This document shows positions 10,569-22,400 of a DNA stretch of 64,000 nt, piece after piece. Within the stretch, counting starts at the first letter, position 1. Each line of letters opens with the position of its first letter. The DNA comes from Octopus vulgaris (taxonomy: Eukaryota), in NCBI GenBank assembly GCA_951406725.2, contig OX597815.1:27838001-27902000 (forward strand), in the 5' to 3' direction. The position numbers are program-made.

Positions 10569-13438
10569 GCGTGTGTGTGTTTGTCCCCCTAGCATTGCTT
10601 GACAACTGATGCTGGTGTGTTTATGTCCCCGTTACTTAGCGGTTCAGCAAAAGAGACTGATAGAATAAGTACTGGGCTTACAAAAGAATAAGTCCCGGGG
10701 TCGAGTTGCTCGATTAAAGGTGGTGCTCCAGCATGGCCGCAGTCAAATGACTGAAACAAGTAAAAGAGTGATGGATAAAAGAAAAAGAAAACCCTCCTGC
10801 ATTATTGATTGTCAGAATCATTTATCCTCTAGTTGTAAATATATGAATCATCTTAGGCCATTGTTTTTTTTTTTTTTAGGTTATCCTATGGTACCCATCA
10901 GCTGGAAGGAAATGCAGTGCCCACATACCTTAATAAAAGAAAAACGTAAAGTAGCCAAAGTTCAGCCCCAATATATACAGAATCCTGAATAAATCATTAA
11001 ACTTTATAAAAAATGTTGCTTTCAAATTGTTTATCGTGTTGATGTTTAGCTCATCATTGCTCCAACATCCTTTTGTTTATGTTAGATGTTATTGATAACT
11101 TTGGAAGAAAAAAAAAAAAAAGAAGAAAGTTCACACATACAGAAAGCAGAAAAAATATTTTAATCAGCACAAAATATAAAATAATGGAAGTAATTAAAAT
11201 CAATAACAAGTGGTCCCTTTTGGTGAAACTAAACAATGGATAATCACAGAATTTTTGTGGCAAGATCTCATGCCTTCACTCTCCAAAACTAAGAAAAATT
11301 TCTCCACTAGACGTTAGCCAGTATTACTCACTTTTATGCTAACTAAATCACAAACATGAAATTTAACAAATAAGTCTTTTCAACAATCTGTTATCAAACG
11401 AAGGCACTTTCATTTTCTTACAAAACTTTTCACATCTTTCCTTTCTTGATCATTTGTCATCTTCATACTTTTCATTTAACCTCAGCATCAGAACCAGGAA
11501 CTGGGCATCTGGTTTTTGATTGTCTACGAGTTATTCGATGAGTTTCTTTATTTTTGTATTTATGTTCAAACTTTTGTTTGAGTTTTTTGTATTTTTCCTG
11601 ACAACTCTTCAGGTGCATTGTAAAAAGACTATCATCGCCATAGGTAGCATCACAAATGTAACAGCGTTTCTGTTTCATGGTGAGGCTGCAAAGTAAAAAA
11701 AGATATTACAATAACCAAAATAGTCTACAACTATAAATCAGAGCAATAGCAATATAAAAACAAAGCAAAGAAAATCAGAAATTAAATCTTACTTTGTGTC
11801 TATCAGTTCCGAGTTAGTTTTCCAATGTTCAAGAGAAACTATAATTTAAAAAAAATATATATACAATATACACACAGAAAAAGCATGCAGTTCCCCCTGA
11901 GGGTGTAGCTATTACAAGGGAGACAACCATTTCTTCATAACATTTGGCAGGATTAGAAATTTGAATTTAAAACTGGGGAATAATGAAAAGATATATAGAA
12001 TTCATGTATCTAATTTTTAAAAATGTTTTTTATTATGGAGATCTTGAAATTTATATTAAAAAAAAAATGGAACTAAGTGGATAACGTGTTTGCACCTTGA
12101 ATGAAAAAAGTAATCTTAGCATTATAATATGCAAAGCCTCTGAAATTTTCCATTAGAAGAACGGGTTATAAAGAATTTGATGTGCTGTTTGATTTACAAT
12201 GATGATGAAATCCTTTCTCCATAAAAGAATACTAGAAAAAATTCTGGAAGAAAGTTTAATATCAGTTTATATGAAATCTCATAAAATGTACAGAATTAAT
12301 ATCCTAAATCAATCAAAGGATTATAGAGGTGTGACAACTGAGGGGTTGTAAGGCAGAGATGTAGGTGAAGTGGAGGAGTGCTGATAAACCAAATACATGT
12401 CCTAGGCCACTCTGTGGCACCATTGTTAACTCTGTTACTAACCTGGCTGAAACTGGCTCTGCCTCTGAGTGCAAATGTCTTGTTTTCATAAGTTATGAAT
12501 TAAGATCTTCCACCAAACCTTAGTCACAATTTATGTTCCTAACACTAGCTGAATGATGACTAAGTTATTTTACTAAATTCTTTGTTATATTTAAAGTAAT
12601 TGAAAGAAACAAAGAGCATCTCAAAATAAATACAGTAACGAAAGGGTTAAGGAAGTGTTTCTTTACAGTTAAGTGCAAACCATCACATTCGATGTCATAA
12701 GCAAAAAAGAAATTTTAATTGTTCTAAATTATTTCCATAATGAGAAAAATAAAAAATGTCATTAGCGTTAATGACTACCATTCAAAAGAAACATGGGAGA
12801 AAACTCCGATGTATGGTAGCTATGGTGACAAATCTGGAGTCGACAATCAGCAGTGAAGTGTTGGACTATTAACCAAATTGGTCAGAAGTTCAAATTTTCT
12901 GACAGGTATTGTGTTGCACCTTGCAGTTGGTTCACCTATGCTTACTTGTGAAATATACTTAAAAAGAAAAGACATTCTAGTTACCTTTTGTACTGTAAGG
13001 GTTATTTGGAGATATTTCCGTAAAATCCTCAGCCAGTAATTCAGGAGTAACACTTTAAAATATAAACAAATTCATTTAAGTTACATTCACAAAACAGAAA
13101 GTCTGTCCTAATGAACTTATACTCTTTACTCTCTCTCTTTTACTTGTTTCAGTCATTTGACTGTGGCCATGCTGGAGCACTGTCTTTTAGTTGAGCAAAT
13201 CGACCTCAGGACTTATTCTTTGTTAGCCCAGTACTTATTCTATCGGTCTCTTTCGCCGAACTGCTAGGTTACAGGGATGTAAACACACCAGCTTCGGTTG
13301 TCAAGCGATGTTGGGGGGACAAACACACACACTTATATATATATATATATATAAAGTATAGAAAACTCTGTTGTGAATTTGCTACCCAGGTATCGGTTAT
13401 CTTTCGAATTATCCGTAATAAGAATTCATTTGTCTACT

Positions 13439-13479
<41 letters not shown>

Positions 13480-19400: not shown

Positions 19401-22400
19401 TTATTTAAATCAGGACTTGAACATCTACTATGTTCCTCTGAAATATTTATATTTATTGGATTGGCTGCAACAGAAACATCATCTTTTTTCGACGGTACTT
19501 GTTCTTCAGACTTAATTTCTTCATCTCCAGATAGAGCATTTTCCTCAGAATCTAAAATATTCTTCCCAATACGCTGTTTACGATCAAGAGTAGAAAGACC
19601 ATGCTTTCCAGTTAAGACGGGTTCACCCCATTTTATCTTATTTAAACATTTGGACTGTTTCTCCCTCAAGTTTGAATGAAATTTATTCCAAAAGGTAAGC
19701 AAGACCATAACATATTCAGAATTTGACATTGATTCAGAGGAAAAAATGTTAGCATACACATTCTGAAAAGAAAGGAGTCTTATTTTATCATTATTTGAAG
19801 AAGTTTCAGCCATTAAGATCAAATTCTTACAGTTCTATCAAGATTAGTATAGATACAGTCACAGCTACAATGATATGAGAGAAGCTGTAAGAGCCACCAC
19901 AGTACTACAAATATTGTTGCAATAATATTATAGGTCTTAACTGTAAAAGTACTAGATTCACACCTGTAACAAAATAATAGTTATATTTCTAATAACCCTG
20001 TAGATATAGCTGTAACAGAACCTCAGCACAGCTGTAACAGTATCACGGTAACAGGACCTAATATGCATGTTTAATGGCATTCACAACTGTAATAGTCACT
20101 CTGCTATAGCCTGTCATATTGGAAGAACCTTTCAATGAAATAGTTTATGTTGCTCTAGCTCTTCATCATACATCTTTCTATCATAATGGGGAACAGTTCC
20201 ATTAGATTACTGCTCACACATCTAAGTCGGTGCAATCAATGTACACATGTACATTACTCTTTACTCTTTTACTTGTTTCAGTCATTTGATTGCAGCCATG
20301 CTGGAGCACCGCCTCTAGTCGAGCAAATCGACCCCGGGACTTATTCTTTGTAAGCCCAGTACTTATTCTATCGGTCTCTTTTTGCCGAACCGCTAAGTGA
20401 CGGGGACGTAAACACACCAGCATCGGTTGTCAAGCAATGCTAGGGGGACAAACACAGACACACAAACACACACATACACATATATATATATACATATATA
20501 CGACAGGCTTCTTTCAGTTTCCGTCTACCAAATCTACTCACAAGGCATTGGTCGGCCCGGGGCTATAGCAGAAGACACTTGCCCAAGATGCCACGCAGTG
20601 GGACTGAACCCAGGACCATGTGGTTGGTTAGCAAGCTACTTACCACACAGCCACTCCTGCGCCTATTATGGACAATTCTTTACTGCAGAATAAATAAAAA
20701 GCACGAGTAACATTTCCATCTTCCAACCTTTTTGTGCGCAGTCAAACTCTGACTTCCCTATCTTTTCTATTTTCAGTACAATGGTCTATTTCTCTGTTGA
20801 TGATTACACATAAACACACCACCATAATTGCTTTCCTTTCTCCTGTCCCTCAACTGTGTCCTCCTTACTATTGCATCCACTGTAAGCCTCTGCCTTATAT
20901 CTTTTCAAATTTATAAAATGAAACAATAATCATATTAACCTTACTTAGCTGTCGATCACACATTTAAAGAGGATCTGTAAAAAACCCCTAGGACTAAAAA
21001 GAGAGAAAAATTCTTTCTCAATTTAATGTTTCTCTATTGATCAACATCAATGGAAATTGTAGCTGTGATACCAGTGCCGGTGGCATATAAGAGAACCATC
21101 TGAATGTGGCCGTTGCCAGCGCCACCTCCGACTGGCCTCTGTGCCGGTGGCACGTAAAAAGCAACATCCGATTGTGGCTGTTTGCCAGCCTCGTCTGGCA
21201 CCTGTGCCGGTGGCACATAAAAAGCACCCACTACACTCATGGAGTGGTTGGCATTAGGAAGGGCATCCAGCTGTAGAAATACTGCCAGATCAGACTGGAG
21301 CCTGGTGCAGCCTCCTGGCTTCCCAGACCCCGGTCAAACTGTCCAACCCATGCTAGCATGGAAAATGGACGTTAAATGATGATGATGATGATCTTGAAAG
21401 CAATTTTTTCCCAATGAAAAACTGCAGTTTCCGGCATTTAAACAACATACATACATAATGTTTTTGTCACAGAGCTGCTTCTGTTGCATAATTTGAATTT
21501 AACTCTTTCTTTCTTGTGGCTGACACTGTACATCCAAGAGTTATACTTAGCCTGTTACTTAATTGCCATCAACTCATAAAAATCTTCCCCAATGCTATTC
21601 TTACTTTAGCTAATATCTTTTCAGTAGAACCATTATGAAATTAATTATGTTCCATAGAGAGCAGAACTTAGGCATTACTTCCAGTCAGCTATTTGGGTAA
21701 TCCATGCGTGCTTTGAATTCCTGCCAGTCACACAGATCCCACTGTAATCTTCATGTTCCACTTCTTTTACTGAGCAGAGTATTGAGTTTGAATCTGCACC
21801 ATTTCTATAAACTGAACAATGTGACATCCAGTTGCATTAAGTCAATCATCATAAAATCCACAAAAACCATGGACATTTTTTTCCAACTTATTCAAACTTT
21901 AGGCCTCACCAAGGAAATGACTAGTGACTGAGACTTTTGGAAATATGCTGTACGTGAGAAGACCCGGCAAGCCAAATGAGACCATAATCTTGTGGCCTAT
22001 GCCAGGGGCATAACCAGCCCACTTATGCGTACCTTTTCCTTCTTTGGACACTAAAACTCTGCTTGCGAAGACCTGTTGAGGCAAGTGAAATCAAATTCGA
22101 TGACTGGCATCTGTGCTAGCGGGATGCAAAGAGCACCATACGAGTCTGATCGTTGACAGAGTGGCTAAGGCACCATTCGAGTATGATCATTACCAGTGTC
22201 GCCTTACTGGCACTCGAGCCCTGTACTAGTAGGGTGTTAAGAGCACCATCCAAGCGTGATCATTGCCAGAGCGGCTACCTGGCCTCCGTGCCGGTGGCAC
22301 GTAAAAGACACCATTCGAGCATGATCGTTACCAGCATCGCCTTACTGACACCTGTGCCGGTGGCATGTGTAAAAGATTCAAGTGAGGTCGTTGCCAGTAC

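Follow-up and report, generated by a model that had tools for sequence, protein, structure and literature searches.

A candidate RAP80/UIMC1 orthologue in Octopus vulgaris that begins at the Abraxas-interacting region and has no recognisable ubiquitin-interacting motifs

Does Octopus vulgaris possess a RAP80 (UIMC1) protein and, if so, how could it find its targets when the tandem ubiquitin-interacting motifs (UIMs) of the vertebrate protein are not recognisable in it? The question is raised by a minus-strand gene in a stretch of 64,000 nucleotides (the window) from contig OX597815.1 of assembly GCA_951406725.2, corresponding to positions 27,838,001 to 27,902,000 of the forward strand; it contains no N, has about 35% G+C, and all coordinates below are counted from its first letter. 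The reading that we consider likely is that the locus is the O. vulgaris RAP80/UIMC1 orthologue in a naturally N-terminally truncated form, in which an Abraxas-interacting region (AIR) is followed by about 370 disordered residues and two C2HC fingers, while the SUMO-interacting motif (SIM), the UIMs and any equivalent of human residues 1-254 are missing.

The gene and its kinship with RAP80

The gene has seven coding exons, running from 25854 down to 11472 on the minus strand, and encodes a 688-aa protein. Splice sites were read from the DNA, and the database protein P0001 ('Hypothetical predicted protein [Octopus vulgaris]', 688 aa) was mapped to the window by exact peptide matches. In the searches exon 2 is named exon A, exon 3 exon B, exon 4 exon C and the last exon exon F. 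The parts of the gene are the following:

25852..25854, minus: ATG start codon, the last three nucleotides of exon 1, followed by the donor GTAAGA; the remainder of the exon would be 5' untranslated region (putative placement)
19763..25851, minus: intron 1, about 6.1 kb, repeat-rich, between the exon 1 donor and a TTTTCAG acceptor ending at 19763
18512..19762, minus: exon 2 (the first exon of the sequence-only reading), 417 codons, aa 2-418, AIR and then a long disordered region; exact P0001 match, donor AAG/GTAAAC (the slash marks the junction)
19544..19750, minus: AIR-like region, aa 6-74, a conserved island in the alignment of cephalopod and Lineus proteins (A4, below); predicted helix at aa 15-43, then ...KWGEPVLTGKH...LD
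15175..15280, minus: exon 3, 106 nt, zinc finger 1 (C424-C443 at 15206-15265), VQCPLCCDWFRPKVIENHAANC; exact P0001 match
13810..14188, minus: exon 4, 379 nt, disordered linker (AlphaFold2 predicted local distance difference test, pLDDT, <50); exact P0001 match
12985..13052, minus: exon 5, 68 nt, exact match to P0001 aa 580-602; acceptor TTTTAAAG, donor GTAACT
11793..11838, minus: exon 6, 46 nt, exact match to P0001 aa 603-617; acceptor AAATTATAG, donor GTAAGA
11472..11685, minus: coding part of the last exon, ending with the TGA stop (11472-11474); it encodes a long basic helix and zinc finger 2 (C626-C646 at 11601-11663, CYICDATYGDDSLFTMHLKSC); exact P0001 match

Exon A ends in phase 0 (GTAAAC), exon B in phase 1 (GTAAAG) and exon C in phase 2 (GTAAGT), and the last exon follows TTTGCAG. 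The four phase-compatible exons proposed by the sequence-only reading are all present, with phases that are exact, and the ends given for them, 11472 and 19762, are correct; its N-terminal motif ending LNKIKWGEPVL lies at 19613-19645 (minus), within an open reading frame (ORF) of 452 aa at 18476-19834 (minus) that is by far the longest non-repeat ORF nearby, and its two C2HC fingers were recovered as CPLC-x11-H-x3-C at 15206-15265 and CYIC-x12-H-x3-C at 11601-11663. Its 649-aa, four-exon model was nevertheless incomplete when compared with the 688-aa database protein, as two micro-exons and the 5' exon contributing only the ATG had been missed; the frame had been kept because the skipped exons 5 and 6 (68 + 46) total 114 nt. 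The exon of about 126 aa placed between the fingers is real (379 nt, 13810-14188), but the true spacing of the fingers is 182 aa, from C443 to C626. Nor is the gene cryptic, as had been supposed, since three octopus annotations already contain a prediction of it, though without a name.

Homology searches were run exon by exon, full-length comparisons being made with database proteins. Exon A is 100% identical to P0001, 99% to O. sinensis LOC115223539 isoform X2, 89% to the O. bimaculoides protein and 53% to that of Argonauta hians. When the PDB was searched by phmmer, the ORF of the AIR exon, represented by its first 98 residues, had RAP80 as its top match (9smn_E, E 0.51), and so had the finger-1 exon (human RAP80, 9sqy_I residues 508-533, E 0.36). 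Since these single-exon matches are each weak alone, profiles containing no annotated RAP80 were built from the AIR of five cephalopod sequences (A2), from three octopod full-length proteins (A1) and from five cephalopods plus the nemertean Lineus longissimus (A4); a separate one was made from eight named fish and lungfish RAP80 proteins (A5). A further profile, A3, contains carp RAP80, which makes searches with it circular, and it was used for names only, among the 120 of its 272 matches that were listed.

The AIR profile A2 retrieved the RAP80 chains 9smn_E, 9sqy_I and 6gvw_E as the top three of five PDB matches (E 0.0032, 0.015 and 0.028), interferon alpha-2 being fourth (E 0.045; E 0.69 in the single-exon AIR search). 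Among 5.8 billion proteins it found ten at E<=1, namely eight cephalopod proteins and two carp RAP80 (E 0.034 and 0.077). The octopod profile A1, compared with 1.84 billion representatives, gave 22 proteins at E<=0.001: four cephalopod proteins, three with an AIR in mid-protein (P0015, P0019 and P0025), one matching by finger 2 and 14 matching by finger 1, the finger-only matches being unnamed records. P0015 is an uncharacterised L. longissimus protein of 1133 aa (A1 E 2.5e-4), whose AIR, finger 1 and finger 2 are colinear with the window (tblastn E 4e-8, 0.012 and 1.1). With A4, the best PDB match was full-length human RAP80 (9sqy_I, E 1.4e-4), over three colinear stretches, AIR at 287-331, finger 1 at 504-539 and finger 2 at 545-589; the next matches included the other two RAP80 chains and the ubiquitin-binding zinc fingers (UBZ) of RAD18 and WRNIP1 (E 0.058-2.5). 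Profile-profile comparison with hhalign gave a probability of 95.6% for A4 against A5 (E 1.2e-8, 49 AIR columns), 97.5% for Lineus against A5 on finger 1 and 93.9% for P0019 against A5 on the AIR, and at eight positions the AIR does not vary from octopus to carp. In the reverse direction, a hidden Markov model (HMM) of A5 was compared with the 3494 ORFs of 12 aa or more that the window contains in its six frames; two had E<1, the exon B ORF (4e-5, the best) and the exon A ORF (0.028, AIR domain independent E-value 0.0016).

The AlphaFold2 model of P0001, computed with A4, has a mean pLDDT of 41, with 569 of 688 residues below 50, and three ordered elements only: a helix at 15-43 (pLDDT 77-86) and the two fingers, at 421-442 and 624-665. 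Finger 1 is predicted to fold as beta-beta-alpha (pLDDT about 86-88), and the finger 2 region of the last exon reaches 84-95. The published AIR, in the passages of the papers cited here and below that bear on RAP80, is a helix and then a strand (PMC6695476), with which the octopus model agrees. Finger 1 is also recognised alone, whereas finger 2 is recognised only within the colinear match and by its pattern; A4 aligns the last exon to human RAP80 545-589 (CYLC...HVDSC), a match that is weak by itself (independent E-value 150). The octopus protein has a region homologous to the AIR of vertebrate RAP80 and, after it, two C2HC fingers in the same order; this homology is non-circular, comprises three modules in the same order and is kept across cephalopods and one nemertean. 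From these comparisons we conclude that the gene is, in all probability, a RAP80/UIMC1 orthologue.

Two of the related proteins differ in their arrangement: P0019 and P0061 (683 and 703 aa) are closely related to each other and have a clear mid-protein AIR and no C2HC finger.

The start of the protein and the search for UIMs and SIMs

The window reads CAG/AAT GTG at the exon A acceptor and the annotated proteins begin M-NVYAN, so that the Met must come from an upstream exon ending in ATG. The pattern ATG/GTRAG occurs at a single minus-strand site in the interval from 19.8 to 40 kb, 25854-25852; its context translates NIICQM, the Argonauta protein P0005 reads '...KIICQM-NVYAN', and an in-frame TAG lies 5 codons 5' of the ATG. 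We infer from these features that exon 1 is the exon ending at 25852-25854. The O. bimaculoides model starts instead at the in-frame ATG at 19813 (MAETSSNNDKIRLLSFQ...); with either start the protein begins at the AIR, the octopus protein starting six residues before the conserved AIR Phe. The same holds for all of the seven cephalopod proteins recovered, which begin no more than a few residues from the AIR; the Met occupies one column of A4 for the octopods and for P0006 and P0026, the more distant full-length cephalopod proteins, which are spliced full-length forms on short contigs (2561 and 2249 nt).

At the other end of the protein, the C-terminal tail (11449-11481, minus) reads ...PGSDAE.K in O. 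vulgaris and Argonauta and ...YEDDK in O. sinensis X2 and O. bimaculoides. The ...YEDDK tail is also encoded in the window just 3' of the stop, in another frame, and the difference between species points to an indel near 11520 or to an alternative junction there.

Motif scans of several kinds were directed at the missing modules. A strict UIM regular expression had zero matches in the window in six frames; a loose one had none in the gene or upstream of it and two elsewhere, one of which spans a stop codon. The Pfam families UIM (PF02809) and RAP80_UIM (PF18282) were absent from all 278 ORFs of 20 aa or more on the minus strand from 19868 to 37701, a scan in which the HMMER filters may lose very weak motif matches, and they were likewise not found in the exons or in P0001, P0005, P0006 and P0026. 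RAP80-specific HMMs were made from fish and lungfish sequences for the UIM pair, the SIM part (residues 1-54) and the whole N-terminus (1-125). They hit the carp control P0027 at 4e-27, 1.7e-19 and 8.5e-45, respectively, and none of the window ORFs better than E 1.4; the best ORF with the SIM and N-terminus HMMs (E 1.4-2.4) is on the opposite strand and far off. With the UIM-pair HMM the cephalopod proteins gave nothing better than E 36, and with the other two nothing at E<=20; P0015, P0019 and P0061 were absent from all three result lists (E<=20-50). Finally, when three N-termini, those of Lineus, P0019 and carp RAP80, were used as tblastn queries, the upstream region yielded noise only. Both of the broader proposals of the sequence-only reading were borne out: for its RAP80/UIMC1 likeness, matches in both directions, the refutation test that it had named beforehand, were obtained, and the lack of an upstream UIM or SIM exon was reproduced by four kinds of scan.

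Two candidates were set aside in this connection. The tblastn match of P0019 aa 176-216 at 36358-36480 is noise, lying inside a CLPB-like ORF, and the N-termini of P0019, P0061 and Lineus, which by eye resemble the vertebrate layout of an acidic SIM followed by two helices, are unsupported by the RAP80 N-terminal HMMs (E<=20-50).

An octopus RAP80 without UIM and SIM is thus supported as far as sequence can take it, although SIMs are short and a cryptic one elsewhere in the protein is possible. The lack of UIMs may extend beyond cephalopods, since in the Lineus protein 330 residues precede the AIR, and they too contain no detectable UIM; between loss in this lineage and gain in vertebrates, the few taxa compared decide for neither.

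The disordered middle, the mode of action and the rival readings

What, then, could such a protein still do? Between the AIR helix and finger 1, aa 46-414 have an AlphaFold2 pLDDT<50. Conservation in A4 is island-like, and comprises the AIR (6-74), a KEN/LLQRRxLF block (170-192), the segment IPSASPTFPSK (310-319) and both fingers. Two of these islands fall within the disordered part:

19190..19258, minus: basic block with a KEN motif (19235-19243) and LLQRRxLF, aa 170-192; conserved in the five cephalopod rows of A4, not in Lineus
18818..18829, minus: S-P-T-F motif, aa 313-316, within IPSASPTFPSK; S313, P314 and F316 invariant in six of six A4 rows, Lineus included

All seven cephalopod proteins have a KEN motif at the corresponding position. 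The pattern SPxF occurs 7 times in five lophotrochozoan proteins, against 0.67 expected from 2000 composition shuffles, and 15 times in eight fish and lungfish RAP80 proteins, against 1.33 expected from as many; the observed count was reached in 0 of 2000 shuffles in both groups, an over-representation of about ten-fold in counts that are non-independent, the rows within each group being related. It stands before the AIR in fishes and after it in cephalopods and Lineus. S-P-T-F is the tetrapeptide of Abraxas pSer406 that is read by the BRCT domains of BRCA1 (PMC6695476); the over-representation of SPxF in RAP80 relatives receives no mention in the published passages checked.

As for the fingers, the UBZ of RAD18 (5vf0_B, E 0.1; 2mre_B, E 0.3) and of WRNIP1 (3vhs_A, E 2.5) match finger 1 after RAP80, at non-significant values. 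In UBZ4 fingers, an Asp two residues after the zinc-binding His matters for ubiquitin binding. It is present in RAD18 (HLDSC) and in human RAP80 finger 2 (HVDSC), whereas octopus has HAANC in finger 1 and HLKSC in finger 2, the more distant cephalopods HLRMC and HLRAC, and Lineus HVNRC, none of them with an acidic residue at that place. The sequence-only reading had suggested that the protein may be recruited by UBZ fingers only; the octopus sequence leans against the canonical UBZ4-ubiquitin contact.

If the locus encodes a truncated RAP80 orthologue, the protein would slot into the arm of the BRCC36 deubiquitinase complex of octopus by way of its AIR helix and the strand after it, as in mammals, with BRCC36, a scaffold of the Abraxas/KIAA0157 type, BRE and MERIT40 as partners. 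The protein would then act as an adaptor, directed to its targets not by UIMs but by the C-terminal fingers together with phospho-regulated linear motifs in the disordered middle; since it corresponds to human delta-IDR1, the human protein without its first disordered region, it cannot act as a UIM reader. Docking on the octopus complex is what we infer from AIR conservation alone, and the adaptor function would follow on it. In the published structure the AIR strand pairs with the MERIT40 and Abraxas sheets, the Abraxas C-terminus conferring specificity (PMC6695476).

Each part of this reading can be contested, beginning with the kinship itself. An unrelated zinc-finger protein, or a distant paralogue, might resemble RAP80 through chance or convergence in short motifs, that is a helix ending WGEPV and generic C2HC fingers, and this would suit the individually weak single-exon matches, the closeness of interferon alpha-2 to RAP80 in the AIR searches and the matches of the fingers to RAD18 and WRNIP1. 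Several null results also count against orthology: phmmer with exon F alone gave no RAP80 from the PDB, only CTCF and eL41 noise; Pfam gave only sub-threshold noise and no family for the four exons of the sequence-only reading, P0001 and P0005; the A5 HMM did not reach the exon F ORF at E<=10; no RAP80 cluster came up for the AIR in the ESM Atlas, where the best score was 0.87; and A1 found no RAP80 chain in the PDB at E<=10, because the long disordered region swamps the signal. However, three modules stand in one protein in the same order, the profile-profile probability is high, significance grows as intermediate sequences are added, the reciprocal search picks exons A and B alone from all the window ORFs, and the invariant AIR positions extend to carp, so that a mere resemblance seems to us highly improbable. 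That the gene is a decaying RAP80 remnant, functionless after the loss of its N-terminus, would fit the absence of the part with most known function in human; but its frame is intact across seven exons with canonical splice sites, the same architecture is found from octopods to more distant cephalopods, and islands of conservation (AIR, SPxF, fingers) among diverged linkers are the pattern of purifying selection on motifs, which leaves this account scarcely credible.

The truncation could instead be an artefact of annotation, the gene being a normal RAP80 whose SIM and UIM exons are small and lie in intron 1, further upstream or in an isoform from an alternative promoter. UIMs are about 20 aa long, and an exon split inside the motif would escape ORF-based scans; the labels 'isoform X2' in O. 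sinensis and 'isoform X1' in Argonauta mean that more than one transcript was modelled; the placement of exon 1 is putative, and alternative 5' exons or promoters are possible. Against this, three independent types of scan were negative on the minus strand from 19.8 kb to the next gene, the tblastn searches with three N-termini gave noise, every recovered cephalopod protein, the spliced P0006 and P0026 among them, begins near the AIR, and a stop precedes the exon 1 ATG in frame; we therefore think hidden exons improbable. Further objections bear on how a truncated orthologue would work. In human RAP80, residues 1-254 together with the AIR are enough to form foci and to recruit BRCA1, and in human cells both foci and phase separation require the part missing in octopus (PMC10570032); no ubiquitin binding is contributed by the human AIR alone, and deletion of the fingers lowers RAP80 activity only marginally (PMC13462971). 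The octopus protein therefore cannot work in the human way. A segment Y-x-W-G-x-P, which contacts MERIT40 (PMC6695476), precedes the AIR Phe in eight of eight fish and lungfish rows; the octopus protein has no room for it, and its interface would thus be smaller. Moreover, in mammals RAP80 incorporation is driven by the Abraxas C-terminus, and invertebrates are described with one ancestral scaffold (PMC6695476, PMC7692841). A bolder proposal holds that the ancestral bilaterian RAP80 consisted of AIR, two fingers and SPxF, with SIM and tandem UIMs added later, that a BRCA1-A-like BRCC36 complex predates the vertebrate Abraxas/Abro1 split, and that cephalopod RAP80 links this complex directly to BRCA1 through its own phosphorylated S-P-T-F, without ubiquitin reading by UIMs; we regard it as unlikely and favour the plainer reading of a naturally truncated RAP80 orthologue.

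For the history of the family, the published dates are recent. UIMC1 is assigned to age class 'Vr' and, together with FAM175A, dated 'before vertebrates' (PMC3969565); RAP80 is described as a later-appearing accessory subunit (PMC6695476), and one ancestral scaffold is reported in insects, the Abraxas/Abro1 split being placed before cyclostomes (PMC7692841 section 1.4). Clear orthologues in cephalopods and a nemertean would instead put the origin of UIMC1 at least in the protostome-deuterostome ancestor, against the near-vertebrate origin published. No description of an invertebrate RAP80 was found in the literature outside subscription journals and orthology databases; Figures S1C and S4A of PMC6695476 may bear on the point. 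The AIR, the fingers and SPxF would be the old parts of the protein, the SIM and UIMs dispensable or newer ones, and a RAP80 without its ubiquitin- and SUMO-reading N-terminus would be a natural separation-of-function allele. It raises the question of the roles that the zinc fingers and the disordered middle have of their own, and of whether the single invertebrate scaffold already binds RAP80. A gene name can also be assigned, since the cephalopod and nemertean records are labelled only 'uncharacterized' or 'hypothetical'.

Neighbouring features and comparison with known systems

The rest of the window contains the following features:

35800-37701, minus: CLPB-like intronless ORF (mitochondrial disaggregase type), 633 aa, with ankyrin repeats, AAA_2 (E 5e-50) and ClpB_D2-small
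40833-41213 and 41586-41960, plus: two ORFs matching the first beta-propeller of WDR3 (E 3e-4 and 4e-17)
50440-51531: a 78-bp unit repeated 14 times with 94% identity, giving rise to artificial open frames on the two strands (313 and 391 aa)
14409-14727, 21034-21333, 22275-22583, 28394-28579, 31116-31271 and 43052-43553, among others, both strands: interspersed repeat, present also in the RAP80 introns

The CLPB-like gene is the next one upstream on the same strand and bounds the RAP80 locus, and the two WDR3-matching ORFs probably belong, as exons, to a WDR3/UTP12-like gene that runs divergently from it. The interspersed repeat translates as ...LQLDALPNANHS.SVVGAFY..., and a second element as ...SGTEPGTMW.VSKLLTTQPL...; both look like repeats of the short interspersed element (SINE) type. 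An extra gene between RAP80 and CLPB was considered on account of weak Pfam matches to MYND (21337-21498, E 0.0019) and ECSIT_C (21678-21836, E 0.013), which were treated as noise because ECSIT_C failed E<=0.01 on re-scan and the ORFs lie among repeats.

Among known systems, the UBZ4 fingers of RAD18 and WRNIP1 share with the octopus fingers the C-x2-C-x11/12-H-x3-C spacing and the predicted beta-beta-alpha fold; they differ at the Asp that RAD18 has two residues after the His, which is Ala in octopus finger 1 and Lys in finger 2. Outside the cephalopods, the nearest relative found is the L. longissimus protein LOC135489388 (P0015), in which AIR, SPTF, finger 1 and finger 2 follow in the same order. 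Unlike the octopus protein, it carries a 330-aa N-terminal extension within its 1133 aa; this has no detectable UIM (Pfam E<=0.1; RAP80 UIM HMM E<=50) and includes an acidic-VVVV stretch that by eye only resembles a SIM.

Vertebrate RAP80 (9sqy_I, 9smn_E, 6gvw_E) differs more widely, since octopus has neither the SIM, nor the tandem UIMs, nor anything else N-terminal to the AIR, including the Y-x-W-G-x-P that precedes the AIR Phe in vertebrates. The human AIR lies at 265-330, after a 254-aa IDR1, and the octopus one is N-terminal; the fingers are 182 aa apart in octopus and about 30 between the human matches (508-533 and about 563-589); the residue two after the His of finger 2 is Lys in octopus and Asp in human RAP80; and SPxF follows the AIR in octopus, while it precedes it in fish RAP80. 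Shared by the octopus and vertebrate proteins are the invariant AIR positions F..Y..L..Q..(W/F)G.P..G, finger 1 of the form CP[LM]C...IE.HA..C, finger 2 of the form C[YF].C...H...C, the over-representation of SPxF, and the order of the modules in a protein that is otherwise disordered.

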